A stretch of 35,908 nucleotides of DNA, from positions 1-35,908 of IMG/VR virus record IMGVR_UViG_3300032296_001124; one strand, 5' to 3'. A program made the translations under genes and the position numbers. Shown here one piece after another: positions 1 to 35,908 of the stretch (position 1 is the stretch's first letter; every line of letters starts with the position of its first letter). Source of the stretch: a virus. Taxonomy: Duplodnaviria; Caudoviricetes. The notes beneath the pieces are model-generated. The model saw nothing but the letters and a program-made list of their open reading frames with translations. It did no database searches and was not told the origin of the DNA.

Positions 1-123
1 GCAGTCCCAAGTTTGGATAGTATCGCCGCTAAAATGACCGCAATGCGTGATCAAACCATGCGTAATCAACTTAGACAAGGTGCCGAACAAACTGCAACAG
101 GTCCGGATGATTCGGCAGATGAC
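1..123. repeat. Terminal direct repeat, left copy (identical to 35786-35908); circular-assembly overlap
   Basis: GCAGTCCCAAGTTTGG...CAGATGAC is present at both window ends. Confidence 0.97.
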
Positions 124-1113
124 TCTAGCCCTGTGGCGCCCAGCGATTCCGCTGTGCCAGAAGTTGGTGATCAAAACACCGATGATATTGACAGCGACAA
201 TTTGACAGCCGATGCCCAGGAAACTGTAAGCGACGCACAATCAAATTCTACAGCAGATGAACTAATTGACTTTATTGAATTTGCCAACGACAACCCAAAC
301 GCTAAGTTTAAGTTCGTTCGCAACGGTAAGGAAGTAGTCATTGATGCTAAGAAGGCCGCAGCAATACTAGGTCAAGGATCAGCAATACACGAAGAAGCCC
401 GCCAACTAAAAGTTGAACGAGCTGAATTTGAAGAATATGTTAATGAGACCCGTGCTCGCCAAGAAGGCTTGGCATTGGCCATGGAATTTACAATTGAACC
501 ACGCTTGCAGAAAGCCTATGATGAAATTTTGAAAACTCAAAATTATCAAACAACTTTCCAACAGCAACTAGCACAGACTAGAGATCCAGCAGCTAGAGCA
601 AGGATTCAAGCCAGTATGCAACAGAATGAACAATACATTCGTCAGCAACAAGCAGCAATTGGCAAGTTGAAACCTGCTGTAGATCAATTTAGACAGATCC
701 GCAGTCAGCAAGTCAGTGAGGTTCTAGGTAACAACCGTAAGAATTTCCAAGACAAAGAATTGAAAAATGAATATGTCTTTAATGAGATTCGCGAAAAGGT
801 TGCCAAAGTATGGCCACATGCTAAACAGGAAATTATTCCCGGTGTCCCCAACATTGACCTAATCAGCAGTGATGAAAACTTGTTAAGTTTAATCCGCGAC
901 GGTCTCAAGTATAGGGACAAGCCCAATGCTAAAGCAGCAGGCGCAAGCATGGCAGCATTAACACAGCGCAAAGGTAGCTCAAGTTCAAACCGTGGCAGCG
1001 GCGACAACATTGAGAAACTTCGTGAACAAGCCAAGAGCGGCGATAAGAAAGCCGCAGACAATCTGCTAATGGCCCAACTACAGAAGTTGAGATCCAGCAG
1101 AGGTTCCCGATAA
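1..1113 (+). CDS. Capsid scaffolding protein; true start is ATG 35729 across the circular junction (~389 aa)
   Basis: Acidic disordered N-terminus, FKFVRNGKE motif and long coiled coil; lies directly upstream of the capsid gene; in frame with ATG 35729, which has an AAGGA SD. Confidence 0.75.
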   Translation, partial: AVPSLDSIAAKMTAMRDQTMRNQLRQGAEQTATGPDDSADDSSPVAPSDSAVPEVGDQNTDDIDSDNLTADAQETVSDAQSNSTADELIDFIEFANDNPNAKFKFVRNGKEVVIDAKKAAAILGQGSAIHEEARQLKVERAEFEEYVNETRARQEGLALAMEFTIEPRLQKAYDEILKTQNYQTTFQQQLAQTRDPAARARIQASMQQNEQYIRQQQAAIGKLKPAVDQFRQIRSQQVSEVLGNNRKNFQDKELKNEYVFNEIREKVAKVWPHAKQEIIPGVPNIDLISSDENLLSLIRDGLKYRDKPNAKAAGASMAALTQRKGSSSSNRGSGDNIEKLREQAKSGDKKAADNLLMAQLQKLRSSRGSR

Positions 1114-1133
1114 TTGCCTTTTAGGAGAATATA

Positions 1134-2306
1134 ATGGCAGAAATTACAACCAGTCAAATTGGTAACGGCACAACTGCTTATGGTAGTGACATCGTTGTCA
1201 AAGACTTAGATCTAGATGTATCCAACCGTGTCAAGGATGACACTCCTGTTCTAAACATGTGTATGAGCAAGAAGCGTAAAGTTAATTCTACTTTACCTCT
1301 ATGGACTGACGATATCTATCGCGCTCCTGCTGTTCAAGCACAAGTTGAAGGTGCTGTTGTTTCTACTGCTAACGCAGAAAGCAACCAGCGTTACAACTTA
1401 GGTAACTACACACAAATTTTCAGCACAACTATTGCTGCTTCTGGAACTGCTCGCGCAGTTATGCAGGCTGGTGGTGATCCCCAGGCTTACCAAGAAGTCA
1501 AGCAGTTAATTGAGCTAATGTTTGATGTGGAACTACAATTAGTTCGTAACGACCAAATCGGCACCAAGTATGCTGGTCAAACAGGCACAGCCTCTGGTCT
1601 ACCATCAGGCCAAACTGGTCGTCGTATGGGTTCTCTAAGTTCTTTCGCAGGAACATGGAGTTTCAATACAACTTCTGGTAACCTAAGCGGTCTAGATACA
1701 TTCTTCAACAACGAAGACACTGACAGTTCTACACAGATCAGTAACGCCCTACGCATTTATGCCAACGGTAACTACTACTACAACGGAACTTTCACTGACC
1801 AACTATTCAGCCCAGCACTATACAAGCAGTTAGTAACTGTTGCTGAACAGCGTTACAACGCTAAGATCCGCACAATCGTATGCCCAACAAGCCTACGCAC
1901 TTCTATCAGCGATAACATCACACAAAGCAGAGGTATCAACCGTGTTGATTCTGCTCGTGGCGATACTATCAGCACATACGAAGGTGATTTCAACTACACA
2001 TACGAAGTATTTGATAGTTGGATCATGGATCAAGTTAACCCCAACAGCATCTTCTTCTTGAACGAAGATGTAGTTCAGTGGGGTAGCCTGCGTGACCTAG
2101 GTCCTAACAACGAAGTATTCAGCAATGCTGACGCTTCTCTAGACCAGTTCATCATGGAAGGAACATTGATTGTTCGTAACCCAGCTGGTGTTGGCGTTCT
2201 AGCTAACATTGAAGCAGGCACAGCCGCACAGAGCGCACTACCAGGTCCTCGTGCTGCTGCACTAGTAAGCCGTGTCAACTTTGGCGCTGGCGATGTTACA
2301 CCTTAA
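1134..2306 (+). CDS. Major capsid protein (SU10/DUF5309-like, HK97 fold)
   Basis: Motifs DL..DVS...DTP, W.DD, GNYTQIF..TI..SGT..AV and YQ..K...EL..DVE; AGGAG SD; followed by a strong terminator. Confidence 0.88.
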   Translation: MAEITTSQIGNGTTAYGSDIVVKDLDLDVSNRVKDDTPVLNMCMSKKRKVNSTLPLWTDDIYRAPAVQAQVEGAVVSTANAESNQRYNLGNYTQIFSTTIAASGTARAVMQAGGDPQAYQEVKQLIELMFDVELQLVRNDQIGTKYAGQTGTASGLPSGQTGRRMGSLSSFAGTWSFNTTSGNLSGLDTFFNNEDTDSSTQISNALRIYANGNYYYNGTFTDQLFSPALYKQLVTVAEQRYNAKIRTIVCPTSLRTSISDNITQSRGINRVDSARGDTISTYEGDFNYTYEVFDSWIMDQVNPNSIFFLNEDVVQWGSLRDLGPNNEVFSNADASLDQFIMEGTLIVRNPAGVGVLANIEAGTAAQSALPGPRAAALVSRVNFGAGDVTP

Positions 2307-2330
2307 TCTATTATAATAGATTAATGGACA

Positions 2331-2355
2331 AAAGCCCGCTTCGGCGGGCTTTTTT
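2331..2355 (+). terminator. Rho-independent terminator after the capsid gene
   Basis: AAAGCCCGC-TTCG-GCGGGCTTT plus U-tract. Confidence 0.92.
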
Positions 2356-2373
2356 ATGGTGATTAGAACGGAC

Positions 2374-2972: not shown

Positions 2973-4193
2973 ATGTTCGTTATACCCACAGCCAATGATT
3001 TGGTAGATTTTATTAAAGACTTTACTGGCAGCAGCAATGACGCTGAAATAAAGCAATGTATTTTCCTCGCAGAAATGAGTATGCGTAACATTGAGTTACC
3101 TGCGCTGCGTAGTGATCCTTATGCGCCAGAAAACATTGGCATTGTGGATAGCTCGGGTAGTATTCCTATTCCCGGTGATATGAACAAACCAATCTTGTTC
3201 TTCAAGCAAGGTGTTCAATATATTACCACTGCTACTGCTACTGGCACTAGCGGACAAAACACAATTGTTTTGTCTAGCACACCGGCGCAGACATTGACCA
3301 ATGGTATGTTGGTCACAGGCACTGGCATTGCTGTAGGTGCTACAATTACTGCTACAGGTGGTGGTGGTATCGGTGACACAGTTACGCTAAGTGCCAATAA
3401 CACAGGCACAGTAAGTGGCACACTGACATTTACTACACCTCCCCCAAATCAAGGCAACAACCAAAGCCAAACTGGTCCATGGATTGTCTATGACCGTATT
3501 GGCGACAGAGACATTATTACACAAAGCATGATTGCTCAGCTATATTTGCAACCAGTGAATGTGCCCGCAGTAATCCGCGGCAAGTTCAGTGAAGTAGGCA
3601 GAAAATACAAGTTTTTGCCATATACTGCTGAAGGTGATTTAATCAACTTGTATTACTACAAAGCATGGCCCTTGCTGTTTGCACCTGTAGATGATACATT
3701 GGTCAGCGCAACTGGATCAGTAAACCCAATCAGCGGCACTGGTCCATGGCTAATTGCTATAACTGGCATGACTGACACAGATGGTATAAATGTTGGTGAT
3801 GAAATTACAGCAACACCAGGCACAGGTAGTTTAGGCACAGGATTTACCAGTGCGGTGGTAACACAAATTTTAAGCAGCACATCAATCCAAGTTAGTGTAA
3901 CAGGTGGTTCAAGCCCACAAGGTGGCACTATTACAGACATTTACATTACTGATCAAACTGTTCAAAACAACGCTGTGCTACAAACATGGGCAGAAGGTTA
4001 TGTATATGGCACACTACGCGAATACTATATCAAACGACACAACGCAGAAGACGCTGCGGTTTATCAACAAAAGTTCCAAAGTGCTTGGGACACAGTAACA
4101 GATCAAAACAACCTTGGCAAATGGAGTGGTGGACACACAAGACTAACCAGTGTTTGGCAACCTCGTCAGTATCGCCAATACAACATCAAGTAA
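2973..4193 (+). CDS. Head-tail adaptor (tail tubular protein A-like) with inserted Thr/Gly-rich beta domains
   Basis: N-terminal L...I.....D..I...I.LAE helix and C-terminal N..L......YVYGTL.E.Y typical of podovirus adaptors; position in the module. Confidence 0.65.
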   Translation: MFVIPTANDLVDFIKDFTGSSNDAEIKQCIFLAEMSMRNIELPALRSDPYAPENIGIVDSSGSIPIPGDMNKPILFFKQGVQYITTATATGTSGQNTIVLSSTPAQTLTNGMLVTGTGIAVGATITATGGGGIGDTVTLSANNTGTVSGTLTFTTPPPNQGNNQSQTGPWIVYDRIGDRDIITQSMIAQLYLQPVNVPAVIRGKFSEVGRKYKFLPYTAEGDLINLYYYKAWPLLFAPVDDTLVSATGSVNPISGTGPWLIAITGMTDTDGINVGDEITATPGTGSLGTGFTSAVVTQILSSTSIQVSVTGGSSPQGGTITDIYITDQTVQNNAVLQTWAEGYVYGTLREYYIKRHNAEDAAVYQQKFQSAWDTVTDQNNLGKWSGGHTRLTSVWQPRQYRQYNIK

Positions 4194-4202: not shown

Positions 4203-6140
4203 ATGCCAAACAATAACTCTTTATACGGATCTGTAACAAACACAGGATCAGTCAGCAGTCAAAACTACACAACGCTGTATAGTAGCAGCACAGCTGGAGT
4301 TGCTAATGGCAATTTAACCGTAGACGGCACACTGACAGTAAACGGCTGTGCCATACTAACAAACTGCACAACATTTGATTTACTGCCCACAACTGCAACA
4401 ACTATAAACTTTGGCCTTGCAGCCACAGCACTGAACATTGGTGCTAACACTGGCGTAACATTAATCAACAACCAACTTGCTACTGCCAACTATACATTTC
4501 CAGTAGCAGATGGCGTTAGTGGACAAGTTTTAGTTACAGACGGTGCAGGCACTGTAAGTTTTGCGCCAGCATCTACTGTAGGTAAAACATACAGCATTGA
4601 TTCTACTGTAACCACAGGCGGTGCAAACTTTAACTTAGTCAGCAGTGATCCTTCAACAGACACTATCAAATTTGCCAACGGCACAGGTGTTACTGTTACT
4701 GCAACATCGGCCAGTGAAATTAGTATTGCTATTGGACAAGATGTTGCCACAACTGCTAGTCCACAGTTTCTTGGTGCTACGCTGGGCAACATTACAGTTG
4801 GCATTGTAGATGACAATACGATCAGCACTACAACAGGCGACTTATACTTAACCAGTGATAACAACCAAGTTGTTATTGGACCTACCAGTGATTTAGTTGT
4901 CAGTGATGATATTATATTAGGTGATTCAATTGTTAAAACAGTTGGCGGTGACACGCTTACTATTGATAACAGTATTGCGTTTGCTCAAGAAGGTTGGCAG
5001 TTAATATTAGAAAACACAACCAATAACCAAATAAAATATCCGCTAGTAGTTACTAATGAAATCACTGGTGGTGCATTGGCCAATGGTGGCGGAACAGGTA
5101 TCAAGTATAGTGCTGAATTAGGTGGCCCTAGCTTACTGCCAATTGGTTCTACAGAATTTGTTGCCGTAGATGTAGCCACAAACAATTATGACTTTGTAGT
5201 TCAAAAACGCAATCCAGCATCATTGCCAGATCAACTACAAGAAATTTTGCGTGTTACTAATAATTCAGAAGTAATTTTAGGTATTACCAATGATACTGCT
5301 ACAGCAATTGGTATTGGCGGCAGAGTTGCAGGCAATGATTATTGGCACATTGGTGGTTATAGTATCAGCGGCACAGCAGGTAACGATGGCGCATTAGAAA
5401 TTGCTGTGGCCAATAACGGATCTGAACCAATTTTTGTGCGTCAATATACCAGTGGTGGCACAACTGGTCAGTGGCCATATGGCAATACAATATTAAGAAC
5501 ATTAACTTTATTAGGCAGCAGTGGTGAAACCATACTACCTGTAAGTTTAACATTAAATGGTTCTAGCAGCGGCAGTTCAACATTTGCTGCACCAGCAACT
5601 GGATCAACACTAAGTTATGTATTGCCAGGCACAGCAGGCGCAGCCAATACAGTTTTAACCAATGACGGTTCAGGTAATTTAACATGGGCATTACCAGGCG
5701 GTGGTGGTTCAACATTTGGTAATGTCAGCATTGGCGTAGTTACAGACAACACAATCAGCACAACCAGTGGCGATTTAGACATTACTAGCACAACCGGCGT
5801 AATCAACTTAGATACTTACACTACACTAACAGATGGTCGTTTAACCACAACCAGTGTTAGCACAGTAACATTGGACAGTTTTGCTGTGGCCACATATCAA
5901 AATGCTACATACTTTATCAATGTCAAAGACGCAGTAACAGGCGACATACAATCAACCAAAGTTGACATCATGCATAATGGCACAACTGCTTATATCAATC
6001 AGTATGCTAATATGACAACCACAGCAGATTTATCAACATTTGCTGCAACAATTTCAGGCGGCAATGTGCTATTAGAAATAACACCAGCCAGCACAAACAG
6101 CACACAGTTTACATTTAGTAGAACTGCACTAAGAGTCTAA
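4203..6140 (+). CDS. Tail fibre / virion fibre protein
   Basis: Thr/Gly/Ser-rich beta repeats (GQVLVTDGAG, NTVLTNDGSGNLTW); C-terminal LDSF....Y..A.Y.I........Q.......H.GT.AY...Y domain. Confidence 0.8.
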   Translation: MPNNNSLYGSVTNTGSVSSQNYTTLYSSSTAGVANGNLTVDGTLTVNGCAILTNCTTFDLLPTTATTINFGLAATALNIGANTGVTLINNQLATANYTFPVADGVSGQVLVTDGAGTVSFAPASTVGKTYSIDSTVTTGGANFNLVSSDPSTDTIKFANGTGVTVTATSASEISIAIGQDVATTASPQFLGATLGNITVGIVDDNTISTTTGDLYLTSDNNQVVIGPTSDLVVSDDIILGDSIVKTVGGDTLTIDNSIAFAQEGWQLILENTTNNQIKYPLVVTNEITGGALANGGGTGIKYSAELGGPSLLPIGSTEFVAVDVATNNYDFVVQKRNPASLPDQLQEILRVTNNSEVILGITNDTATAIGIGGRVAGNDYWHIGGYSISGTAGNDGALEIAVANNGSEPIFVRQYTSGGTTGQWPYGNTILRTLTLLGSSGETILPVSLTLNGSSSGSSTFAAPATGSTLSYVLPGTAGAANTVLTNDGSGNLTWALPGGGGSTFGNVSIGVVTDNTISTTSGDLDITSTTGVINLDTYTTLTDGRLTTTSVSTVTLDSFAVATYQNATYFINVKDAVTGDIQSTKVDIMHNGTTAYINQYANMTTTADLSTFAATISGGNVLLEITPASTNSTQFTFSRTALRV

Positions 6141-6154: not shown

Positions 6155-9100
6155 ATGGCTAATAAAAACTTTCAAGTAAAACACGGCCTAGAAGTAGGCG
6201 CAACAGTTACAGCAGATGCTGCCACTGGCAATATAACAACCAGCGGCGATGTTGCTGTCAATGGCGGTGATTTAACTACTAACCAAACAGCTTTTAATTT
6301 ACTCAACACCACAGCAACCACTGTTAACGCATTTGGTGCAGCTACTACGCTAGAACTTGGTGCTGCCACAGGCACTACCAATATCAACAACAACTTAGAA
6401 GTAGATGGTGATGTTACCATTGACGGTGGCGACCTAATTGTTTCTACTTCAACATTCAACTTGGCCAATACCACAGCCACTACGCTAAACATTGGTGGCG
6501 GTGCTACAACTGCTGTGGTAATTGGTAACAGCGCAGGTGAAATTGACACACCTAGTGATGTTCAACAAACTGGCAACAAGAGTTTTAGACAAGGTGATGG
6601 TCCATATTCAGGCAGCACAGATATTTTAAGAGATAACAATGGTAATGCCATAGAAGGTTATCTAGCCAGTAACAACAACATGACCACTGCTGACAGCGCA
6701 TTGGTTGTAAGAACATATGGTGGCACAACACCTACCAGTGGCGTAGCATATGGCAATGCTGGTAAACTATTCATGCAGGGTAGTCGTGGCACATCAGCTA
6801 GTCCACTAGCCATTAACAGCGGTAATGGTATTGGTTTGATATCATTTAGCAGTAACCTAGGCACTACAGCGGGCGCCGGCACGGGCACAGGATTTACTAC
6901 TGATAACAGTCCTGTTTTATTTCAACCTGGTGCTATCTACAGTTTTGCTAACCAAAACCATAGACAAACACTACAAGCAACATTTACCGGCAGTATTAGT
7001 GGAACAACGCTGACTGTTACCGCTGTGGCCAGCGGTGTAATTACAGCAGGACATGAAGTTCGTGGCACAGGATTTGATCCTACTAATGCCGGTTACACTA
7101 TTTTATACCAAAGTTCCAGCACAGCACCCAGCAATGCATTAGGCAGCACTGGAACATATGAATTATGGGCATCGCCGGGCACAATTGCCAGCAGCACAAT
7201 GACTACTGTGCAAGTTCAAGCAGGAAGTCAAATGCGTTTTCAACAGGCACATCAATTTTGGCCTTTAAATGCCAATACCTTTCAAAGTTTGACTTTTACT
7301 ACCGCTCAAGGTGGAGTTCTTAACGCTCCTTATACCAGTGTAAGATTTAGACAAAGTGACCCATATCTTCCTCAAGCAACTCGCATCATTAGAGAAATCA
7401 CTGGCGGCAACACACTAAACATTGGCACACATGGATTTACTGTTGCTGGTGCTAGTTTTACTATTATCACAGCAGGTAACCCAAATGGCTTAACCACTGG
7501 CACAACATATTTTATTGATACTATTCCCAGCACAACCACTGTCACACTACGCACAGTTAGCAGCGGTGGCGGTGCAGTTACAGGATTGACTAATGGCAGT
7601 GGGCTATTCATTCTGGCTGATGCGGCTGCTATTGCTGCCAACGGTAACCAAACACAGCCATCAAATGTGGCAGTGGCTGGCACTCGTGGCGGCCACAATT
7701 ACGCAGGAAGTTATAACGCTGACAATAATAGACAAAATGATTGGCTAGGAGAATATAGATTCACCGGTGGTTTTAGTGATTTTAGCAGCAATACTAATAC
7801 AAAAATATTTGGTCGTGCTACACAAGACTGGGCCGCAGGCAGTGCTGCTGGCAGTGAAATAGGTTTTCAATCTATAAAAAATTCAACACTAACTACTTAC
7901 ATATCAACTATTGGTGCTAATGGATCAACATTTGTCAACGATTCATTTACAATGAACAACACTCTTGCTGGCAGTATGCTCAGTGTTGACAGTAGTGGTA
8001 ATTTAACCATTAACGGTGATTTGCGTGTAAACGGCAATGATCTTCTCAACAGCAATGGCACTACAGTGATGACAATGACCACTGGCACTCCACCTAATGT
8101 GATATTTGCCGGTGACATTCGCATCAACGGAAATGATATTTTAGCCAGTGATGGAAATACTAATATCTCATTGACCAGCAATACACTGACTGCATTTGCT
8201 GGGGATATTCGTGTAAATGGCAATGACATTCAAAACAGCACTGGCACTACTGCTATTACAATGTCTACTGGCACTCCACCTAATGTGATATTTGCTGGTG
8301 ACATTCGCATCAATGGCAGCGATATCAATGCCAGTGACGGCAATACCAACATTACTTTAACCAGCAACACACTGACTACCTTTGCTGGTGATGTGCAAAT
8401 TAATGGTAATGATATTTTAAACAGTGCTGGCACCACGGTAATGACGATGTCCACTGGCACTCCACCCAATGTAATATTTGCTGGAGACATTCGCATCAAT
8501 GGTAATGACATTATTGCCAGCGATGGTAATACTAATATCTCATTGACTAGCAACACACTGACTACATTTGCTGGTGACATTCGCGTCAACGGTGGAGATA
8601 TTCAAAACCCAGGTGGCACCAATGCAATTACATTGACCAGTGCCAACGCTACAACAACCATTCGCGGTGACAGCATTGCACTTAAAGTTAACGCAGGCAC
8701 AGCAGCAACCAGTGCCAATGTTGACTACACACGCACATTTGGTGAGTTTGCCTATACCAATGCTGCTGGCTTTGCTATTGCTGCACAGAACACAATTTAT
8801 ACAATGCCCTTGGATACAACACTGAACAACAGTGGCGTAACCATAGCAAATACCGGTGACATCAACATCAATGTCTCGGGTTGGTATAAGATTATTATGA
8901 GTCTACAAGTAACACTAACAGTCAGCAACCAACCAGGACAGATTGATTTCTGGCTACGCAAGAATGGTGCGGATGTTGCCAACAGCAAAACACAGGTTGA
9001 CTTGCTCAAAGATCAAAAGTCAGTTATCAGCATGGACTGGTTGGTCAACAGCGATGGCAACGATTATTGGGAAATTGTTTATGTAGGCACAACTACAAAC

Positions 9101-9202: not shown

Positions 9203-9212
9203 GGAGATTAAT

Positions 9213-9368
9213 ATGCGAAAAGTATTAGTAAAAATTGTTAATGTTGATATGGAATTTGAACTAGAAGTGCCAGAGTTCTATAGAGACGAAGACATTTATA
9301 GATTAGCTAGAATACACGCTCAGCAGTTAAGTTGCGAACAATATGTTGAGTTAATAATTGAATCATGA
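9213..9368 (+). CDS. Small hypothetical protein (51 aa, MRKVLVKIVN...), absent from the ORF track
   Basis: AAGGAG SD; ATGA overlap with the next gene. Confidence 0.7.
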   Translation: MRKVLVKIVNVDMEFELEVPEFYRDEDIYRLARIHAQQLSCEQYVELIIES

Positions 9369-26136: not shown

Positions 26137-26144
26137 GGACCAAC

Positions 26145-26576: not shown

Positions 26577-26653
26577 GCCGTCCGGAGCACTAAGAGTAAC
26601 CTAGAGATTTTACGGCTTTCCCTCTAGGGCAACAAGGGAATTGGCAGACCCAA

Positions 26654-27154: not shown

Positions 27155-27183
27155 TGCTTTGCCTTTCAAAAGTTATCACACTG

Positions 27184-27202
27184 TATTTAACTAGTATAAA
27201 TA
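27184..27202. promoter_or_regulatory. Back-to-back divergent late promoters: TAAATA (minus, 27184-27189) and TATAAATA (plus, 27195-27202)
   Basis: TATTTA-ACTAG-TATAAATA between divergent genes. Confidence 0.78.
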
Positions 27203-27207
27203 CATAT

Positions 27208-27555
27208 ATGGAAAAGAATATGACACCCCCAGTAAAGACCGGTAAACGAGGCGGCAAGCGCGAAGGCTCTGGCCGTAAAAAAGGCAGCACTAATCTATTG
27301 AGTGCCACAGATTTATTGGCCAGCATCAAAGCTACCAGTAAAAAAGAATACGCACAAATACTAGCAGAAGATTTTGAGTTTGCTAGAAAGTATCCTGACC
27401 CCAACTTGTTGGCCAAGTATCACCAATTGATTCTAAACAAAGTTATGACCACACTTAGCACAGTAGAAGTCACTGACAGCGCAGAATCAGTTGAAGCTAA
27501 ACGACAAGCCTTTGCTGATGCATTGGCCAAAATGTCGGGGCTAAAACAGGAATAA
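27208..27555 (+). CDS. Terminase small subunit candidate
   Basis: RGGKREGSGRKKGS.N N-terminal motif common in TerS-like proteins; helical; upstream of terL. Confidence 0.55.
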   Translation: MEKNMTPPVKTGKRGGKREGSGRKKGSTNLLSATDLLASIKATSKKEYAQILAEDFEFARKYPDPNLLAKYHQLILNKVMTTLSTVEVTDSAESVEAKRQAFADALAKMSGLKQE

Positions 27556-27558
27556 ATA
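27553..27558 (+). promoter_or_regulatory. TAAATA promoter 5 nt before ATG 27564
   Basis: TAAATA-CTATT-ATG. Confidence 0.6.
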
Positions 27559-27563
27559 CTATT

Positions 27564-27722
27564 ATGCCGTTAACTAAATCAACTAGTAAAAAAGCATTCC
27601 AGAAGAATGTCAAAACTGAAATTGCTGCTGGCAAGCCCGTTAAGCAGGCTGTGGCAATCGCATACGCTACTAAGCGTGAAGCGGCTAAAAAGACTACTAA
27701 GTCAAAAGGAAAGAAAAAATGA
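27564..27722 (+). CDS. Small basic phage protein (52 aa, MPLTKSTSKKAFQKNVKTEIAAGKPVKQAVAIAY...), absent from the ORF track
   Basis: Recognisable K.S.K....NI..E...GKP.KQAVAIA pattern of small phage proteins; ATGA overlap. Confidence 0.85.
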   Translation: MPLTKSTSKKAFQKNVKTEIAAGKPVKQAVAIAYATKREAAKKTTKSKGKKK

Positions 27723-28177
27723 AAGAATCCAAAGATCAAAAGGGCGGCTTACCTTACTTTCAAGGTCCTGGTTTTAGCCGTGGCAGCGACAAGTTTGCTC
27801 ACAACCAATGGAGTGGCCACAGCAATGATGGTCGCCTAGTAAACAAAGGTCGTGGCCCTACCAAAGGCAACGAAGATCACAAGCCTATGGCTGTTGGTCC
27901 TGCAGCAACCAAGGATGCATATCGTCCTGTTCCTCAGTGCCATACACCCAGCGTTCAGCAGGGCAAAGAATTATTCACTGGCACTACACAAGTTCGTAAT
28001 CCCGGTGGCACACGCAGCTGGGATCCACAAAAGGGTCAAAACTACAAGGGCAATCCTGACAAGATCAATGTCAGTGGTTACAGTATGGGCGATGGCAAGA
28101 TGGCCAAAGGCAACCGCCCTGTTAAGAGTCCAACCAATCCCGATGGTATGAACTACGGTCCAAAGAAACAATATTGA
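27719..28177 (+). CDS. Gly/Lys/Pro-rich disordered protein
   Basis: AAGGA SD; contains GRGPTKGN motif. Confidence 0.75.
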   Translation: MKESKDQKGGLPYFQGPGFSRGSDKFAHNQWSGHSNDGRLVNKGRGPTKGNEDHKPMAVGPAATKDAYRPVPQCHTPSVQQGKELFTGTTQVRNPGGTRSWDPQKGQNYKGNPDKINVSGYSMGDGKMAKGNRPVKSPTNPDGMNYGPKKQY

Positions 28178-28187
28178 TAGGTGACAT

Positions 28188-28526
28188 ATGACAGCATATC
28201 AAATCGCAGGTCCTGCATTTACACTAGCCGCTGATGTTACACCGGCAACCGGTGATGTTACCTTCAGTGAAGTAGCAGGCAATTTAGGTGGCGGCAAGGC
28301 ACCATTGTTCTTAAAAGTAACCAACCCCAGCACCAGTGTTCCTGTTTTCTTTGACGCAAAGTTAACAACATTGACTGTGGCAACAGCAGGCACAGTAATT
28401 GGTCCGGGTCAAACTGAATTTATTCAAGTATTGACATCACAGGCTTTTCAAACTGTTTATGTTGCAGCCAGTGCGGCCAGCGCAGTAACAATATATGTTA
28501 CACCAGTAACAGTAGTAGGAGCATAA
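28188..28526 (+). CDS. Small beta-sandwich virion protein (decoration-like)
   Basis: AGGTG SD; L.V.N.....V......G..I.PG..E pattern. Confidence 0.65.
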   Translation: MTAYQIAGPAFTLAADVTPATGDVTFSEVAGNLGGGKAPLFLKVTNPSTSVPVFFDAKLTTLTVATAGTVIGPGQTEFIQVLTSQAFQTVYVAASAASAVTIYVTPVTVVGA

Positions 28527-28527
28527 C

Positions 28528-28800
28528 ATGTCAACAAATCCAATGAGCAAACCAATTAATCAAAAGCGTGGTCCACAAGTAGGCAATGCCGGTATGGGCA
28601 CCAAGCGAGCAGACTTTATGGCTGAGAAAAGCAAGACCAGCAGCGAAAAGGCTGCGTTGGCCAATATGGTCACTGATGCACTAGCAATGCGTGGTCGTGA
28701 TAACCGTAGTGCTCGCAAGCCTGGCGTAGAAAGTCTACATGACACAACCAATGTTGGTCGTGGTCCTACCAAGGGCAACGCTGGCAAGAAAAGCAAGTGA
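28528..28800 (+). CDS. Small basic disordered protein
   Basis: AGGAG SD; RGPQVGN and GRGPTKGN motifs. Confidence 0.75.
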   Translation: MSTNPMSKPINQKRGPQVGNAGMGTKRADFMAEKSKTSSEKAALANMVTDALAMRGRDNRSARKPGVESLHDTTNVGRGPTKGNAGKKSK

Positions 28801-28931
28801 AGCCAAAGAAACCTAAAGCGCCTAAGCCCATGCCCAAGGCGCCAAAGAAACCTAAGACACCTAATCCTAAATTGGGCAGTAAGAATCCTGCTGCAAGAAA
28901 AGGTGCATTAGGCGCAAGCAGCGGATATTAA
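28797..28931 (+). CDS. Lys/Pro-rich peptide (44 aa, GTG start), absent from the ORF track
   Basis: GTGA overlap; KPKKPKAPKP repeats fill the gap to the next SD. Confidence 0.55.
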   Translation: MKPKKPKAPKPMPKAPKKPKTPNPKLGSKNPAARKGALGASSGY

Positions 28932-28941
28932 GGAACATATT

Positions 28942-29871
28942 ATGAGCATGTCAAGTGGAGGCAAGTCAAGCGGCGGCAATCAGCCCAGCAACTTATCGCC
29001 TGATCAACAGAATCAAATTCAAAATCAAACAGGCAACTTCACCGGTGGCTTGAATATGACGCCCAACAACATGTATGGCACAACTCCACAAGTTGGCAAT
29101 CAACCTCCACAACAGCAGCCAGGCGGCGTTCCACAAGTTGGTAATCAAACTCCGCAGGTAGGATCGCCCGGCATTGGTGGTAATTTAACTCAACAACAGC
29201 GAGATTATTTTGATTATAAGAAAAATAATCCGCAAAGCAGTTATTATGATTATCTATCTTTTGGACCAAACGCTCAACCGGGTGATCAACTCAGTTTTGA
29301 TCAACGACAGTCTATGTTGGGTTTAAAACCGGTTTATGGTAACACTCCCCCGATGGCAACAGTTTCGCCAGAAATATTGGGCTATCAAACTGAAGCCGGC
29401 GATTATCTAGATCTAGAAGGTAATTCAATGGCACCGCCTTCATCAATGCCAAATTTGAATTCGCCCATACCTAGCAATTACGCAGGACTGGGAGATGTTG
29501 CTTTATCTAGGCTTGGTTGGAAGCCTGGCAGCCCATTGCCGGCGCCAGATGTTTTGCAGAAAGCTATAGCAGATGTGCGTCAAGGCGGTTTTGCTGGCCT
29601 AATGCAGCCTACTCCGGCACTACCTCCGCAAGTAGCACAACCTGCGCCTGCTGCTAGACTAAACCCGTTTGTTAAACCTCCGCAGGCACAAGTTGGTAAA
29701 ACAATATTGCGAGCACCAACACAGCAACAGCTACAGGCAAGACAAGCACAACAACCAGTGCGTAGACCGGCGCCAGTAGCACAGCCAAGAGTTGCACCAC
29801 AACCTGCGCCAGTGCGTAGACCCAGTGTGCAACCTCCGTTGATGCCCGGTCGCCCAATGCGTAGAAGATAA
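28942..29871 (+). CDS. Pro/Gln-rich low-complexity protein
   Basis: AAGGA SD; PQVGN repeats. Confidence 0.7.
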   Translation: MSMSSGGKSSGGNQPSNLSPDQQNQIQNQTGNFTGGLNMTPNNMYGTTPQVGNQPPQQQPGGVPQVGNQTPQVGSPGIGGNLTQQQRDYFDYKKNNPQSSYYDYLSFGPNAQPGDQLSFDQRQSMLGLKPVYGNTPPMATVSPEILGYQTEAGDYLDLEGNSMAPPSSMPNLNSPIPSNYAGLGDVALSRLGWKPGSPLPAPDVLQKAIADVRQGGFAGLMQPTPALPPQVAQPAPAARLNPFVKPPQAQVGKTILRAPTQQQLQARQAQQPVRRPAPVAQPRVAPQPAPVRRPSVQPPLMPGRPMRRR

Positions 29872-29874
29872 CAC

Positions 29875-29904
29875 TAAATACATGGTAGGACAGAATCCTA
29901 CCAT
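29875..29904 (+). promoter_or_regulatory. TAAATA promoter followed by a perfect 9-bp hairpin
   Basis: TAAATA 29875-29880; ATGGTAGGA-CAGAA-TCCTACCAT 29882-29904. Confidence 0.62.
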
Positions 29905-29931
29905 ATTACATTGCATAGTAAAGGAAATGAT

Positions 29932-30723
29932 ATGAAAAAAACCACCAAGTCTCCAGCCGAAGACAATGTATGGGACGATGTAACAGCAGAAGAAGTTCAT
30001 GCTGTAGCAGAACAAATCGCAGGTCCCGTAGATAAACCCACCCCTCCCCCAGCACTACACACAGTAGAATTTGACATGGAAGGTCTAATGACTGACTTTC
30101 CCACTGCCCGAGAACTAGAGCGTTTTGTCTACGACGAAACTGGCATTGTGCTAAACTTAAAAGGTCGTGCCAACAAACTCAAATACCAAGTTGCACTAGA
30201 TGTCTTAAATGGCAAAGAAGTTGATCCAGTGTTTACTGGCAGCGAAAATCCTTATGTTGACAAAACAGAATTAATTCCTGTTGAAGAACTACGAGATCCT
30301 CCCGCTCGTGATCCTAAACTACCTGCTCGCACAGAAGTGCAAAACTTGTTTGTCAGCAATCAAATTCCTCACACTGACTTTGAAGAGCGTGCCAAAGATA
30401 AAAAGATCAATGTTATTTTCCGCAAATACAAAAGCGGTGAAATCAGTTATGAAATCCTAGGCCCTGTTAACCAGCGTCCATTTGGCACTAAGTTAGACAA
30501 GTTTGGCCGTGAGCGTCCAGAAGTTATCAAGTGGATTGATCCACGCAAGGGCGAACAAATTGTTGTGCGTGAAGATGGCACATTGACACCGCAAGGTCGT
30601 AAACTTCGTGCCTTAATGCAGACATTCAAAGTCAACAGCAGCAACCAATGGGACACTTGGATTGACCGTGAATTTGTCAGCTTAACTGAAAACATTGCTC
30701 TAAATGTTTGGGATGACAAATGA
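29932..30723 (+). CDS. Hypothetical protein (263 aa) upstream of terminase
   Basis: AAGGA SD before ATG 29932. Confidence 0.8.
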   Translation: MKKTTKSPAEDNVWDDVTAEEVHAVAEQIAGPVDKPTPPPALHTVEFDMEGLMTDFPTARELERFVYDETGIVLNLKGRANKLKYQVALDVLNGKEVDPVFTGSENPYVDKTELIPVEELRDPPARDPKLPARTEVQNLFVSNQIPHTDFEERAKDKKINVIFRKYKSGEISYEILGPVNQRPFGTKLDKFGRERPEVIKWIDPRKGEQIVVREDGTLTPQGRKLRALMQTFKVNSSNQWDTWIDREFVSLTENIALNVWDDK

Positions 30724-31025
30724 CCTCCCCAGAAGTTCGCAACAGCATCATTGACCAAGCGCAGCAACAGCGCATGGTTCGTGATACTGTGATCATGCAA
30801 AAAGTCAATGCGGCACACAGAGAAGCGTTTAAGACACGCTTTCCTGGTCAAGTAGAACATTGTTTGAGACTAACTGCGGAACGCTTGCAGGCCATGTTAA
30901 CCAACAAGCCTGACAACCTAGCAGATCCAGCTACATGGACTGCTACAGCAGCAGAGATAGCACAACTCTGCGAAGCAATATATTATCTCAATCAAGTTCG
31001 CCAAGCCTGCCCTGTTGAGGAGTAA
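30720..31025 (+). CDS. Hypothetical helical protein (101 aa)
   Basis: ATGA overlap; directly upstream of terL. Confidence 0.75.
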   Translation: MTSPEVRNSIIDQAQQQRMVRDTVIMQKVNAAHREAFKTRFPGQVEHCLRLTAERLQAMLTNKPDNLADPATWTATAAEIAQLCEAIYYLNQVRQACPVEE

Positions 31026-31027
31026 TC

Positions 31028-32641
31028 ATGAACACGGCAGACATGCTGATGAATCGTGCTCTACGCTATGCTTTGGACGAGCATAGCTTAACCATTGATG
31101 CACTCAAAACCATTCCTGGCAAGTTAAAAAACATGCTGGAGGATTTGGCCATTGCTGTAGCCGATGACATGCGATACAACAGCTTAAAATATTTTAGGCC
31201 GTTTGAACATCAGCGAGCATTCTTTAGAACCGGCGCAGCAGATCGCCGTGGTATACTGGCAGCTAACCGAGTTGGTAAAACAACCAGCACATGCTACGAA
31301 ACAGCCATGCACCTAACCGGCATATATCCAGACTGGTGGGATGGCTATCGTTTTGATGCTCCTATCACTTGTATGGTAGCAGGCGAAGGTTGGAGTCAGG
31401 TAGCATTGGTATTGCAACAAGAACTATTAGGCACACAAGATGTTAAAATTACAGAAAGTTTGGGAACTGGCGCAATTCCTCGTGATTGTATTGTTACTGA
31501 TACTATGCGTAATGATGGAGCTAACTGTATCGGCGTTGAAATTCGTCATAAGTCAGGCGCTAACAGTTATCTCCTATTTGCCAATTACACGCAAGAGGTT
31601 AGACAACTCCAAGGTTTCAAACTTAATTTGGCTGTATTTGACGAGCAGCCACCGGATGACTTTTTCAGTGAAGTCGTTACTAGAACGGCTACAACACAGG
31701 GCAAAGTGCTTTGTTCGTTTACGCCGCTCAAAGGCCTCAACGGACTTGTCAGCAAGTTCTGGAACAGAGAGTCAGGCTACGAATACATCCGTGTAAGTTG
31801 GGATGATGTTCCTGAATATGATCCATGGGGTCAACCATTCCTGCTAATGGAAACACGCCGACAGTTAGAGCGTGATTACTTGCCACATGAACGCGAAGCT
31901 CGTATTGCAGGTAAGCCTGTTATGGGTAAAGGTGCTGTGTTCCAATTGGGCAACTGGCCCACATACAAAGCAGGCGAATTTAACTTTGCTACTATGCCCA
32001 ATATACACAGAGCTATTGCACTGGACTTGGGTTTGGTCAATGACAAAACAGTTATATCATTAATGTATTGGGATCCATATGAGAAAACAGCGTTTCTACA
32101 TAAGCAAATCGTTGTCCAAGGAGTGGAAGAAGCAGTCCCTATGCAGTATGTTAACCACTTACTTAGACCTGAAGTTTTTGGCTGTCCTATTGTTCTTCCT
32201 AGTGACGCTTCTACTCCCGGGCGCTATACTATGAGCAGTAACAGCGTTCGTGAACTATTTGAAAGTTATGAATTAAATGTAATACCTGAGCCCATTATGA
32301 ATCCACCGGATCCACAAGGGCGCAGAACAAACCACAAAGCATATGGTATCAATATGATGCGGCAAATGCTGGAGGTTGGCAGTTTAATGGTTAATGAAAA
32401 TTGCACACATTTCTTAAACGAAGCACAAAACTACTTCGTAGATGAAAAGGGCAGATTCAGCGATCCGGATGACTGTATTGATAGTGCAAGATACGCACTA
32501 CTGGCATGCTTGCAAGGCATTGCTGAACCATGGGACAACAGAACACCCGCAGAGCGGATGCGAGCCCAACGAGATAGATATGTAATGAGAGATTATAGCA
32601 ATAAAGCTGCTATAAAGAAAATATATGACCCAAACAACTGA
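31028..32641 (+). CDS. terL: Terminase large subunit
   Basis: Walker A AANRVGKT, Walker B LAVFDE, motif III FTP, nuclease IALDLG and DD.IDS.RYA. Confidence 0.96.
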   Translation: MNTADMLMNRALRYALDEHSLTIDALKTIPGKLKNMLEDLAIAVADDMRYNSLKYFRPFEHQRAFFRTGAADRRGILAANRVGKTTSTCYETAMHLTGIYPDWWDGYRFDAPITCMVAGEGWSQVALVLQQELLGTQDVKITESLGTGAIPRDCIVTDTMRNDGANCIGVEIRHKSGANSYLLFANYTQEVRQLQGFKLNLAVFDEQPPDDFFSEVVTRTATTQGKVLCSFTPLKGLNGLVSKFWNRESGYEYIRVSWDDVPEYDPWGQPFLLMETRRQLERDYLPHEREARIAGKPVMGKGAVFQLGNWPTYKAGEFNFATMPNIHRAIALDLGLVNDKTVISLMYWDPYEKTAFLHKQIVVQGVEEAVPMQYVNHLLRPEVFGCPIVLPSDASTPGRYTMSSNSVRELFESYELNVIPEPIMNPPDPQGRRTNHKAYGINMMRQMLEVGSLMVNENCTHFLNEAQNYFVDEKGRFSDPDDCIDSARYALLACLQGIAEPWDNRTPAERMRAQRDRYVMRDYSNKAAIKKIYDPNN

Positions 32642-32852
32642 CGAAAAAGCACCGCTGTTTCTATGCAGCGTAAATAAAGAAGGCATCCTATTATGTGAAA
32701 AACACGCTAAGGTATTTGAACTGGCAATGATGACAGCTAAAGTGCCGCATACTATCTATGAACTAGATGAAGAAGACACTAACACAATAGAATGTCAAGC
32801 CTGTGATTTAACAGACACACTGGAAAGACCACGCTTTATATTACCTAACTAA
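32625..32852 (+). CDS. Small Cys/His protein (C..H, CQAC; possibly Zn-binding)
   Basis: ORF overlapping the end of terL. Confidence 0.65.
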   Translation: MTQTTDEKAPLFLCSVNKEGILLCEKHAKVFELAMMTAKVPHTIYELDEEDTNTIECQACDLTDTLERPRFILPN

Positions 32853-32863
32853 AGGAGATTACT

Positions 32864-33001
32864 ATGGGAAAAGGATCAACCCCAAGGCCTTTTGATGTGC
32901 CTATGCAAAAGTTTGCAGAAAACTGGGACAAAATATTCGGTGCCAAAAAAGAAAAAGAAAAGCCCGATCAGCGTGACCACCCCGACAAGGGCAAGAAGTA
33001 A
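32864..33001 (+). CDS. Small phage protein (45 aa, MGKGSTPRP...FAENWDKIFG), absent from the ORF track
   Basis: AAGGAG SD; GKGS.PRP...NWD.IF pattern familiar from aquatic phages. Confidence 0.8.
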   Translation: MGKGSTPRPFDVPMQKFAENWDKIFGAKKEKEKPDQRDHPDKGKK

Positions 33002-33028
33002 GAGCTAGCCAACAGATAAAAAAGACGC

Positions 33029-33034
33029 TAAATA
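33029..33034 (+). promoter_or_regulatory. TAAATA promoter of the portal gene
   Basis: TAAAAAAGAC-GC-TAAATACT, near-identical context to the promoter at 15228-15247. Confidence 0.65.
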
Positions 33035-33058
33035 CTATATTAGAGGGCTGAATGAACC

Positions 33059-35350
33059 ATGTTAGATATTAAACATATACCGATTCAAGACATTAACACA
33101 AACAAGCAGATTAATGCTCGTTTTGTTAGACTGAAGAATCAAATGGATGTTAAGATGGCATCCTACTTACGCTACCTAGGCACCAAAAATGCTGTTAACA
33201 GAGCCAGTGATTATCACTATTTGTGCCTTGCTGTTACTGACTCTACTGCTCCAGTAAACGGCATTGATTACATTCACCCTAGTGTAAAACCCGTAGTAGA
33301 TTATGCCACCGCAGTTATTGCCAAAGGCCTTATGCCCAATGGCGAAGTAAACTTTGAATTTGTGCCCGATAACGAAGCAGATGAAGACGCAGCCCGTCAA
33401 GCCTCTAACATGGTTCATAAAGTTATCAACCAAATGAATGATCCGCACTTTATTCTAGAGCGTTGGATTATGGATGCAGCCATGCACAAGAATGGTATGA
33501 TGATGATTAAACCTGTGCGTGAGTTAATTACACGCTATGTAGAAATACAGGGCACACAGGATCAACTACGAGCCTTTGAACAACAAGCAGCAGACAGTGG
33601 ACTAACAGCCACACGCCAAAGCCGCAGACAAGTAACTGTTGACATGCAAAGCGTATTGGCAGAAGTGCAGCAGTTAATGGGCGAACAAAACATGGCGTTT
33701 GCTCGTGAACAACTAGATGGTAGAATTGCACAACTACAAGAACTGCCAGAAGACCTAGATCTAGCAGCGCAAGAAACAGAAGCACAAACAACACTAGATG
33801 GACAGATTGCAGACAAGCAGGCTGTGTTAGATGACGCTATCGCTCGCAACACAATCTACAAAGCCAAATATAAATTAACTGGCTACAGTATCAACATTAA
33901 GTTTCATCCTATTGCACAGCATTATTGGATCTGTGATCCTACTGTGCCAGAAATGAAGGATCAACCATTCTGTGGTTATTACGATCCAATGACAATTCAA
34001 GAAGCAGTAGAACTATATCCTGGTATCAGCGACCACTTAGAAGAATTTGAGCAGTATGCTGAATACAATATGAACGGCGCTTACCAAGCAGGTAGCGTAT
34101 TGAATAACTTAGCCATACATGCTCGTGACAGCGTGCCTGTTATGGGTATTCCTGTCAGTAGCGCAGCATCAGCTGATCCTGACAGCAGACAAGTAAGTAT
34201 CGTTACAGTATGGAACCGTTATGACATTGACGGTGACGGTGAATTAGAACTCGTTGAAATCATTTACAGTGGCAGTTATATTATCAGTGCCCGTGAAGTG
34301 GAGTTTATCCCTGTAGCTAACATGTGTCCAAAACCATTACCAGGTAACTTCTATGGCATGAGTATCGCTGAATCGGTGATACCGATGCAGGAATACGCTA
34401 CCAGTGCGGCTCGTGCTGAAATTCAATTAGGTCTGTTAACTGCCACTCCCCGTATTGGTGTTAAGCCTGATCGCCTAGACTTTGAAATGTTGCAGGATGG
34501 CGAAGCTGCTATCTTTATTTTAGATAGTAAATTTGATCCCAGCAAAGACATTTACCAAATTCCTCCTCCCAGTGGCAACCTAGCGTTCCTAGAGCAGGGC
34601 ATGAACCGTATTCAACAAGATACAATGAGCATGATTGGTATGACTACACCACAGGATGTATTCAACCCAGAAGTTATGGCTGCTGGTAACAGTGGTATCA
34701 AACTACAATTAGCACTGACACCAAACCAAATTATTCAAGACAATACTGTGCGTAATGCCGCAGAAGGCCTAAAGCAAGCACTATGGCTAACATGGCGCAC
34801 ACTGATTCAGTATGGCGATGATTATGGCGTTAAAAAACTAGCGCAGGAAAGTCATCCTAGCAAAACAGCAGAGTTCTTAGACTTCCTATCTTGGGACGAC
34901 ATGAACTTCTGTGATCGCAAGCAGATTCAAATTGAACTAGCAATTGGTATGAAGAGCGAAGAAAACAGTCTTGCTCGTTTACAGATCATTCAAAAGTGCC
35001 AAACAGATTTATATCAAACTGTGCAGGCCATGGCTGCTAGTGGCGCACTGACACCTGAAGTATACAAGAAAGTTAAGAAGCCATTTGCCGATACATTGTA
35101 TGTGCTAGGTGTCAAAGACTGTGACACATACTTGCCCAGCGATGATGAAGTCATGCAAATGATTCAAGCTTCACAGGCAGCACAACAGAACAAACAGCCA
35201 AGTCCAAGTGATCAAAAGGATCTCAGCGCAGCCGCGTTGAACCAAGTCAAAGCACAACAAATTGCTGCTGAGATTGAAGGCATTGATCCAGAGACACAAT
35301 TAAACTACATGAGTCTCGCAATGGGTAAAGCACAAGATTACGGCCATTGA
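33059..35350 (+). CDS. Portal protein (P22/SU10-like)
   Basis: 763 aa after terL; F.P....D...A..A....., DA...KNG and D.DGDG.LE...P.P..FYG.S motifs. Confidence 0.9.
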   Translation: MLDIKHIPIQDINTNKQINARFVRLKNQMDVKMASYLRYLGTKNAVNRASDYHYLCLAVTDSTAPVNGIDYIHPSVKPVVDYATAVIAKGLMPNGEVNFEFVPDNEADEDAARQASNMVHKVINQMNDPHFILERWIMDAAMHKNGMMMIKPVRELITRYVEIQGTQDQLRAFEQQAADSGLTATRQSRRQVTVDMQSVLAEVQQLMGEQNMAFAREQLDGRIAQLQELPEDLDLAAQETEAQTTLDGQIADKQAVLDDAIARNTIYKAKYKLTGYSINIKFHPIAQHYWICDPTVPEMKDQPFCGYYDPMTIQEAVELYPGISDHLEEFEQYAEYNMNGAYQAGSVLNNLAIHARDSVPVMGIPVSSAASADPDSRQVSIVTVWNRYDIDGDGELELVEIIYSGSYIISAREVEFIPVANMCPKPLPGNFYGMSIAESVIPMQEYATSAARAEIQLGLLTATPRIGVKPDRLDFEMLQDGEAAIFILDSKFDPSKDIYQIPPPSGNLAFLEQGMNRIQQDTMSMIGMTTPQDVFNPEVMAAGNSGIKLQLALTPNQIIQDNTVRNAAEGLKQALWLTWRTLIQYGDDYGVKKLAQESHPSKTAEFLDFLSWDDMNFCDRKQIQIELAIGMKSEENSLARLQIIQKCQTDLYQTVQAMAASGALTPEVYKKVKKPFADTLYVLGVKDCDTYLPSDDEVMQMIQASQAAQQNKQPSPSDQKDLSAAALNQVKAQQIAAEIEGIDPETQLNYMSLAMGKAQDYGH

Positions 35351-35360
35351 TTTTTTTAAC

Positions 35361-35366
35361 TAAATA
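35361..35366 (+). promoter_or_regulatory. TAAATA promoter of the head operon (hypothetical, scaffold, capsid)
   Basis: Intergenic; 10 nt before ATG 35377. Confidence 0.62.
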
Positions 35367-35376
35367 GATATAGCAT

Positions 35377-35718
35377 ATGATAAACGAAGATAGCATAGAT
35401 TTTTTTAATAGTCGTCTTACAGCAGATTTAAGTCAATTGAAAAACATGACACCTGCACAACAGGATCGTGTAAGACACTATGGTAGCCAGGCAGAAGCAT
35501 TGTTAAAGAATAGAGACTTTGCTATGTTTGTGCATCATTACAAGTTTCAGTTAGCAGATGAATTAGCGGCCATTCGCGGTCATCTGCCAGACGACAACGC
35601 ACAGCGAGTTGGCTTAGCCAATGAACTTGCTGGCATTGACAATTTTGTTAACAGTCTTAAGAAGGCTGTTTACATTAAAAACCGTATTGGTAACACTAAC
35701 GAAGTGCCCAATACTTAA
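35377..35718 (+). CDS. Hypothetical protein between portal and scaffold
   Basis: G..A..LL....F pattern typical of the post-portal gene. Confidence 0.75.
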   Translation: MINEDSIDFFNSRLTADLSQLKNMTPAQQDRVRHYGSQAEALLKNRDFAMFVHHYKFQLADELAAIRGHLPDDNAQRVGLANELAGIDNFVNSLKKAVYIKNRIGNTNEVPNT

Positions 35719-35728
35719 AGGAAAATAA

Positions 35729-35908
35729 ATGGAAACAACGACAGTCAGTCCTAACAGCACACCCGCTGCGGCCACTGAACAAAGCGCAGTCCCAAGTTTG
35801 GATAGTATCGCCGCTAAAATGACCGCAATGCGTGATCAAACCATGCGTAATCAACTTAGACAAGGTGCCGAACAAACTGCAACAGGTCCGGATGATTCGG
35901 CAGATGAC
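35729..35908 (+). CDS. N-terminus of the scaffolding protein (continues at position 1)
   Basis: AAGGA SD; ATG 35729 is in frame with ORF 13..1113. Confidence 0.8.
   Translation, partial: METTTVSPNSTPAAATEQSAVPSLDSIAAKMTAMRDQTMRNQLRQGAEQTATGPDDSADD
35786..35908. repeat. Terminal direct repeat, right copy
   Basis: Identical to 1-123. Confidence 0.97.

Follow-up and report, generated by a model that had tools for sequence, protein, structure and literature searches.

How a phage might express its late genes when it carries promoters for them and no recognisable factor to read them is the question raised by virus record IMGVR_UViG_3300032296_001124 of IMG/VR, the whole 35,908-nucleotide (nt) stretch of which (the window) was analysed here. 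The window closes into a circle of 35,785 bp, positions 1-123 being identical (100%) to 35786-35908, and the record is classed as 100% complete with direct terminal repeats. Scans of its proteins (44 against Pfam and PHROGs, 28 against NCBIfam) confirmed a virion set of SU10-type capsid and portal, large terminase, tail, fibre and ejection genes, together with proteins of Dps-like, HNH-like nuclease and holin-like type. The same scans recognised no polymerase, primase, helicase, single-stranded DNA-binding protein (SSB), integrase, RNA polymerase (RNAP), sigma factor or endolysin, and no tRNA gene was found in the window. In its closure, its head, tail and packaging genes and its lack of recognised replication, RNAP, sigma and integrase genes, the genome is as a preliminary description of this DNA had portrayed it. 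That description went on to propose that late expression, and probably replication and lysis, are supplied by a co-infecting T4-like myovirus.

The proposal is supported in part, and in a changed form. Late expression probably depends on a giant phage that encodes the late sigma factor gp55 (probability about 0.72), lysis is likely borrowed from the same phage, and the window phage would then likely grow only in cells co-infected by it. Borrowing of late transcription and lysis is considered likely because of the contrast between the window's own clade (clade A) and a sister clade (clade B), because no sigma factor or endolysin was found, and because clade A has DNA and genes in common with giant gp55 phages, among them a structured non-coding element at 13,593-13,900. 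The helper is likely a giant phage like Phosso or PA5oct rather than one of T4 size, and in this respect the first proposal is revised.

Placement of the TAAATA box

The T4 late promoter is a -10-like box without a -35 element, read by host RNAP with gp55, gp33 and the gp45 clamp. In the window the hexamer TAAATA occurs 19 times, 18 on the + strand and once on the - strand, including two tandem copies (2381 and 12558); the 15 sites first reported are all present, as are the two copies described as gene-internal (10103 and 32671). It is the position of TAAATA, not its abundance, that is non-random. The total is at chance level (19 against a mean of 25.8, with 92 of 100 shuffles reaching 19), as is that of the full T4 octamer TATAAATA (3 copies against a mean of 1.35, with as many in 17 of 100 shuffles). 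Meanwhile, 15 of the 19 copies lie no more than 70 nt before a start codon, where 4.4% of positions are found (binomial 1.5e-17; five start coordinates in this count are off by 1-3 nt), and TAAATA scores best of all hexamers for such placement, above Shine-Dalgarno words. Against synonymous shuffles, coding DNA holds no antisense copy (13.9 expected; minimum of 7 over 300 shuffles) and three sense copies (10.9 expected; reached in 1 of 300). The non-coding + strand holds 12 (2.7 expected; maximum of 9 over 2,000 shuffles). The enrichment suggested earlier is therefore one of placement. Thirteen of 45 genes bear the box, and the copies at 10303 and 12353 precede short non-coding stretches, not genes. 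These stretches (10303-10385 and 12353-12510) end in terminator-like hairpins (10357-10375 and 12482-12508) and are candidate late small RNAs, for which Rfam gave nothing above noise.

Clade A was sampled with one capsid query, which returned 560 related IMG/VR stretches; the best 80 (83-100% identity) were used and 17 of the longest records taken. The two bases before TAAATA in 215 sites are most often AC (53), GC (38), GA (23) and TA (19), and A/G-C-TAAATA thus replaces TA-TAAATA, first thought to be the usual form. In agreement with the earlier reading of a box without a -35 element, the 213 distinct sites show no -35 signal (outside -3 to +5 no position exceeds 0.14 bit; 13 TTGACA-like words against 6). 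Spacing to the start codon is exactly TAAATA-N5-start in 98 of 383 sites, few sites lie at 14-23 nt and a second mode lies at 25-35 nt; the N5 and 25-35 nt groups are the pattern expected for messages that are leaderless or have room for a ribosome site. The giant loci sampled show a short-spacing peak at 10 nt (18 sites).

As in T4 late transcription by gp55, gp33 and gp45, this is a short, sense-oriented and conserved -10-like box with no -35 conservation, and the A/G-C before it is the variant reported for the T4-like phage Aeh1 (PMC2988020). It differs from T4 in that the conserved core is TAAATA and not the full octamer, that TA precedes it in just 19 of 215 sites, that many starts are predicted to be leaderless and that it stands in a genome without a detected gp55. 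By these sequence features, the N5 spacing being an indirect one, the box likely behaves as a gp55-type promoter. Were TAAATA instead a binding site or a terminator-linked word, and the structured element mobile cargo from a common host, this would fit the chance-level count, the two boxes (18718 and 27553) that start on the TAA stop of the preceding gene, and the presence of the element in several small-phage lineages. Such an account is highly improbable, given the strict sense orientation, which extends to the one reversed gene, the antisense avoidance, the N5 spacing and the fact that TAAATA also heads genes in gp55 phages (34 of 157 in the gp55-bearing giant contig G026).

Sister clade and the search for a sigma factor

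Clade B was represented by 80 loci found with the capsid of GenBank MW202484 (Podoviridae sp. ctfne034), and the same simple gene caller was applied to both clades. The MW202484 capsid is 61% identical to that of the window, and the head, packaging and tail core is common to both; the sister clade differs in having a lambda-like early region and an endolysin and in making no use of TAAATA. In clade A, 380 of 1,419 genes are headed by the box, and the figure for clade B is 22 of 1,364 (reverse-complement controls give 73 for A and 28 for B). At least two genes are so headed in 79/80 loci against 2/80, and in seven complete genomes of clade B the box heads 1-3 of 55-69 genes. MW202484 carries SSB, Erf, Cro, RusA and a chitinase-type lysin, and in the 64 of 96 selected clade-B proteins that were scanned a primosomal initiator (6 of 7 genomes), Sak or Erf, Holliday-junction resolvases (RusA), endolysins and a spanin were recognised. 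An endolysin (GH19 or phrog_7) is present in 23/28 clade-B genomes and in 0/20 of clade A. Where the box is gained, then, the lysin and the lambda-like early module are lost, in what is a single and unrooted evolutionary contrast. Among 24 gene families tested, the Dps-like, TerS-like and basic low-complexity genes are present in 18/18 clade-A and 0/8 clade-B genomes and all map to the region that TAAATA heads; clade A as a whole has no early gene in common. The Dps/ferritin-like gene is fixed in all 18, and in clade B another Dps-like family takes a comparable position.

The Kuravirus phages (phiEco32/SU10), after which the Pfam capsid and portal families are named, encode their own sigma factor and DNA polymerase, neither of which was recognised in the window. 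A sigma factor hidden among the hypothetical proteins, which the preliminary description had suggested looking for, was not detected with Pfam, PHROG or NCBIfam, nor with searches aimed at gp55. Two gp55 PHROG families had no match in 25 clade-A records or MW202484, and the same families do detect Phosso and 3 of 17 partial giant contigs, with one further weak match containing stops. With a profile built from 8 gp55 sequences, the best E in six-frame translations of 26 genomes was 5.4, and profile-profile comparison with 19 families gave a probability of at most 2.6%. Sigma70_r2 was silent even in 5 giant contigs, showing that this family is blind to gp55. Of the two window proteins of unknown function that were folded, the 263-amino-acid core protein gave a mostly beta model (predicted template modelling score 0.45) with no PDB match at E <= 0.001 and no usable Atlas match, and the model of 9657-10190 had a best Z of 4.7 with neither sigma nor Rep among the matches listed, which does not exclude such folds.

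A phage that is autonomous, using a small early protein as an unrecognised activator of TAAATA, host enzymes for replication and an undetected protein for lysis, has to be set against these results. Small phages without a polymerase exist. The six window early genes are orphans (one has a single match among the loci compared) and stand behind sigma-70-like promoters at 10857-10885 and 11819-11847, found in a promoter scan that overall was not above chance (15 found, 19.6 expected); there is a holin-like gene and, by eye, a lysozyme-like stretch in the ejection protein, and a replication protein is present in 13/18 relatives. However, a promoter used throughout the family should need an activator found throughout the family, and the clade-A-specific genes are all in the region that TAAATA heads. 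The gain of the promoter also coincides with loss of endolysin and initiator, and autonomy leaves the giant-phage element and genes unexplained. Autonomous growth is therefore regarded as unlikely. A 34-nt near-perfect palindrome, possibly an operator or terminator, occurs twice in the early region (10811-10850 and 11781-11820), each time just 5' of a strong sigma-70-like promoter.

A structured element in the replication slot

The element at 13,593-13,900 is 73% identical over 222 nt to that of relative G018. A query with its core returned an estimated ~790 stored stretches, and 128 of 129 tested pass a profile search. In 78 of the 80 loci that include flanks, a nuclease subunit is followed by an SbcC-like ATPase, a small gene, a homing-endonuclease-like gene, the element and then a convergent baseplate hub, and in all five long giant contigs tested gp55 lies ~4 kb upstream of the element; these giants are ~350 kb and aquatic. 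In the predicted fold, 10 sequences show two-sided changes at 11 of 29 pairs (matched by 1 of 500 shuffles, with 0-5 in slid controls), the fold being derived from the same alignment on which it was tested. Furthermore, 22 pairs covary in 49 sequences, with G-U outnumbering A-C on the + strand (445 vs 67). Rfam had no match for the element and blastn none among cultured phages. A first degenerate pattern gave 119 loci with 11 true copies, every one of them known before.

From its abundance and fixed position in giant phages, the element is inferred to have moved from giant to small phages. A tree rooted at its midpoint places the window in a single long-branched group with G018, G078, G079 and L328 (support 1.0); G075 and G076 adjoin giant L327, and G077 nests among giants, placements that suggest more than one capture. 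The small gene directly 5' of the element in G018 is also present in some giant loci (L109:6034-6303 and L483:3433-3711), and gene and element seem to have moved together. Window gene 12584-12931 also sits just upstream of the element in G079. Gene 14471-14725, present in 12/18 relatives, has cultured matches solely in jumbo phages (13 of 50,697 records, 284-469 kb: Phosso, PA5oct and their kin, and SCTP-2), and in IMG/VR lies mostly on large-phage contigs estimated at ~350 kb. At its C-terminal end, the product of 4203-6140 has a domain that resembles cyanomyophage tail-fibre/baseplate proteins by sequence match. Five further element-bearing contigs (G075-G079; L594-L599) are without the clade-A terminase type; four of them have siphovirus-type head and tail genes by eye, and all five show a TAAATA strand bias (e.g. 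9 against 1, 13 against 3) and have accessory genes in common with clade A. By sequence, they are a second candidate satellite lineage, of siphovirus type.

In 18 near-complete clade-A relatives, the slot between tail fibre and tail nozzle is occupied by a Prim-Pol with one of three helicase types (9), a PolA-like protein (4), the element (2) or nothing recognised (3). These classes do not overlap, which, on small numbers, is why the element is read as an origin. The absence of replication genes claimed earlier thus stands for the window genome and fails for the family, and borrowed replication is plausible for the window genome alone and not as a family rule. The stand-alone PolA-like proteins (360-490 amino acids; L102:1587-3071, L100:15851-17266, L088:9653-10753 and L114:3840-4913) represent two relative families whose identification, by visible motifs together with a 0.75 lead in the Atlas, serves as a lead only; a PDB sequence search with them gave no match.

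Like a ColE1-type origin, the element would be an RNA of several hundred bases with a conserved fold, and we consider an origin function tentative, at somewhat under an even chance, with a regulatory or decoy RNA as likely. The element is present in just 2 of 18 relatives, and for both to lack Prim-Pol has a chance of ~1 in 4. In two giant contigs the main strand switch, with its skew flip, is 4-5 kb away from it, the flip there following gene strand, and skew at fourfold sites did not point to an origin at the element. At the syntenic site of Phosso (229759-230772; L581:9760-10773) there is a 1-kb non-coding gap followed by RNase HI, with no match to the element profile. PA5oct ncRNA004 was considered as a counterpart and rejected, as it does not adjoin the PA5oct RNase H gene.

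The Prim-Pol and helicase of nine relatives, along with the sigma-70-type early genes and an HNH-like nuclease under a TAAATA box, would also suit a facultative exploiter that persists or replicates slowly as an episome, the giant's sigma triggering only the burst, or that serves the host as a defence against giant phages. This differs from dependence on a giant helper solely in the stage before the helper arrives. It is decidedly unlikely, since no integrase, partition or repressor family was found in 44 window and 113 relative proteins, and the 185,579 species genomes of GTDB hold just one 3.2-kb clade-A piece, in an Actinomycetota bin. A sister-type contig lies in a Dechloromonas bin; neither match shows integration and so no host is named.

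Gene map, proposed cycle and known satellites

The features of the window are as follows.

1-123 (copy 35786-35908): terminal repeat through which the assembly closes as a 35,785-bp circle.
35729-35908, across the join to 1113, + strand: scaffold-like gene, core in both clades; function inferred from its place between portal and capsid.
1134-2306, + strand: HK97-type major capsid protein (SU10_MCP), without a TAAATA box belonging to it, the nearest upstream box being 35361.
2386-2970, 2973-4193, 4203-6140 and 6155-9202, + strand: head-completion and tail-fibre genes behind TAAATA at 2374 and 2381.
9365-9634, + strand: XhlA/holin-like small protein with coiled coil and membrane segment, below the Pfam cut-off; no endolysin adjacent.
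9657-10190, + strand: accessory gene found in 9/18 relatives; predicted ferredoxin/PII-like alpha-beta arrangement (best Z 4.7).
10513-12344, + strand: early region of swappable content, made up of six small orphans, with two sigma-70-like promoters (10857-10885 and 11819-11847).
12584-12931, 12928-13140, 13137-13349 and 13336-13587, + strand: unit of small genes headed by TAAATA at 12554, with TAAATA-N5-ATG at 13325.
13593-13900, + strand: structured non-coding element common to giant gp55 phages, core at 13764, in the replication slot; candidate RNA-primed origin.
14006-15205, + strand: TAAATA (14006), then HNH-like nuclease (14037-14474), gene 14471-14725 and two small genes.
15240-26576, + strand: TAAATA (15240, 18718 and 22169), then tail nozzle-like, tail, low-complexity and ejection-protein genes.
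26145-26576, + strand: Dps/ferritin-like gene, last of the preceding stretch.
26654-27189, - strand: sole minus-strand gene, with the sole minus-strand TAAATA (27184-27189) 35 nt before its start.
27197-33001, + strand: TAAATA (27197, 27553 and 29875), then a TerS-like gene (so labelled from sequence motif and position), basic low-complexity genes, the 263-amino-acid core gene and the large terminase (31028-32641).
33029-35718, + strand: TAAATA (33029 and 35361) heading the portal (33059-35350) and a 113-amino-acid core gene.

Within this map, 18747-22151 encodes a 1,134-amino-acid Gly/Thr/Pro-rich protein of the virion region with long tandem codon repeats, in a slot whose length is very variable among relatives, and the long tail-fibre gene has three repeats spaced 186 nt apart (8006-8645). 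Positions 8000-14793 are matched without difference by one contig of run X1, which may itself be the source of the record. Lake-water runs from six studies contain at least half of the sampled words from 26100-35785; over 8000-16500, three of these runs cover the structural flanks and leave the early region mostly uncovered. Short pieces of other element copies were found in runs X3 and X4 of four runs compared, in which the helper is not identifiable.

In the proposed cycle, the particle would inject its own DNA and host sigma-70 polymerase would read the small early genes. Late genes would stay silent until a giant phage brought gp55, with clamp and co-activator, and late messages would then begin a few bases past TAAATA, about a quarter of them directly on ATG. 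The phage would build its own heads and tails and exit when the helper lyses the cell. The start of replication would be modular, with relatives using Prim-Pol and helicase or a PolA-like protein; the window genome would carry a captured copy of the helper's structured element, its use by the helper replisome as an RNA-primed origin having rather less than even odds.

Several observations weigh against dependence on a giant helper. The bases before TAAATA in the sampled giant contigs (commonest GA, CA, AA and GT) are unlike those of clade A, so that no sampled giant is a matched helper. Half of clade A (9/18) has its own primase-helicase, and the six orphan early genes could include an unrecognised activator, two window unknowns having been folded. 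The homologous sites and loci counted here are non-independent, and gene calls come from one simple home-made caller. Dependence is, moreover, a prediction from sequence.

The virion of a virophage is of the double-jelly-roll type, and that of the window is of SU10/HK97 type. Dependence on a giant virus for late expression would nevertheless be most like that of virophages such as Sputnik and mavirus, which have their own capsid genes, promoters in common with the giant virus that its transcription machinery reads, and genes taken from it (PMC11172284). All three have counterparts here, promoter sharing at the sequence level only; virophages have eukaryotic hosts and a dependence established by experiment, whereas the window represents a tailed bacterial phage with a predicted dependence in which only a sigma subunit for host RNAP would be borrowed. 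The Streptomyces satellites MiniFlayer and MulchRoom (15-17 kb) have their own terminase, portal and capsid, no primase or replicase, an HNH gene and a virulent large helper; MiniFlayer binds the helper neck, and MulchRoom has siphovirus-like long tails and an integrase (PMC10690885). The accessible part of that account does not describe use of a helper promoter, and the genomes of the window family are larger (33-40 kb) and also encode tail, fibre and ejection proteins. Ando, Aci01-2-Phanie and cf-PICIs (phage-inducible islands of the chromosome that form capsids) also have their own capsid and need a helper (PMC13587820, PMC11476376), but borrow tails, whereas the window phage has tail genes itself, and what it appears to borrow is transcription and lysis.

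The I55 island is a parasite of jumbo phage JPTI55 (PMC12772148) and, like P4, PICIs and PICI-like elements (PLEs), it is integrated, has an integrase and uses helper capsids for packaging, so that labour is divided the opposite way; the window has no integrase family and has its own capsid, portal, terminase, tail and ejection genes. The suggestion that a satellite with its own virion inverts the P4/PLE logic holds as far as these genes go, yet has precedent in MiniFlayer and the virophages. As in satellite viruses, the virion proteins are the window's own. As to a replicase, none was recognised in the window genome, and relatives carry Prim-Pol (9/18) or PolA-like proteins (4). In the literature searched, neither clade A, nor a phage with its own virion genes that borrows gp55, nor the element is described. 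Three element core words are absent from six supplement files of PMC10690425, and five terms from the main text of a 2026 preprint on non-coding space; further supplements of both may list the element. The main text of the PA5oct paper mentions neither gp55 nor TAAATA.

If dependence on giant phages is real, an abundant family (560 stretches from one capsid query) that resembles ordinary lytic podoviruses would consist of parasites of giant phages, which would alter the way freshwater virus ecology counts these genomes, explain their resistance to isolation and provide a bacterial counterpart of virophage promoter sharing. The presence of a helper promoter in the absence of its sigma factor would offer a sequence test for hidden satellites, and the autonomous sister clade a natural before-and-after comparison. 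Furthermore, the 300-nt element would be a candidate for the origin, or for a regulatory RNA, in giant phages of a widespread group. A wider possibility, held with slightly less confidence than its opposite, is that of a lake guild of 'bacterial virophages' in which podovirus and siphovirus lineages with complete virions have lost their own late regulator and lysin and adopted gp55 promoters, some swapping primase-helicase for a stolen giant RNA origin. If so, the copies in these small genomes would reveal the replication origin of that giant-phage group.

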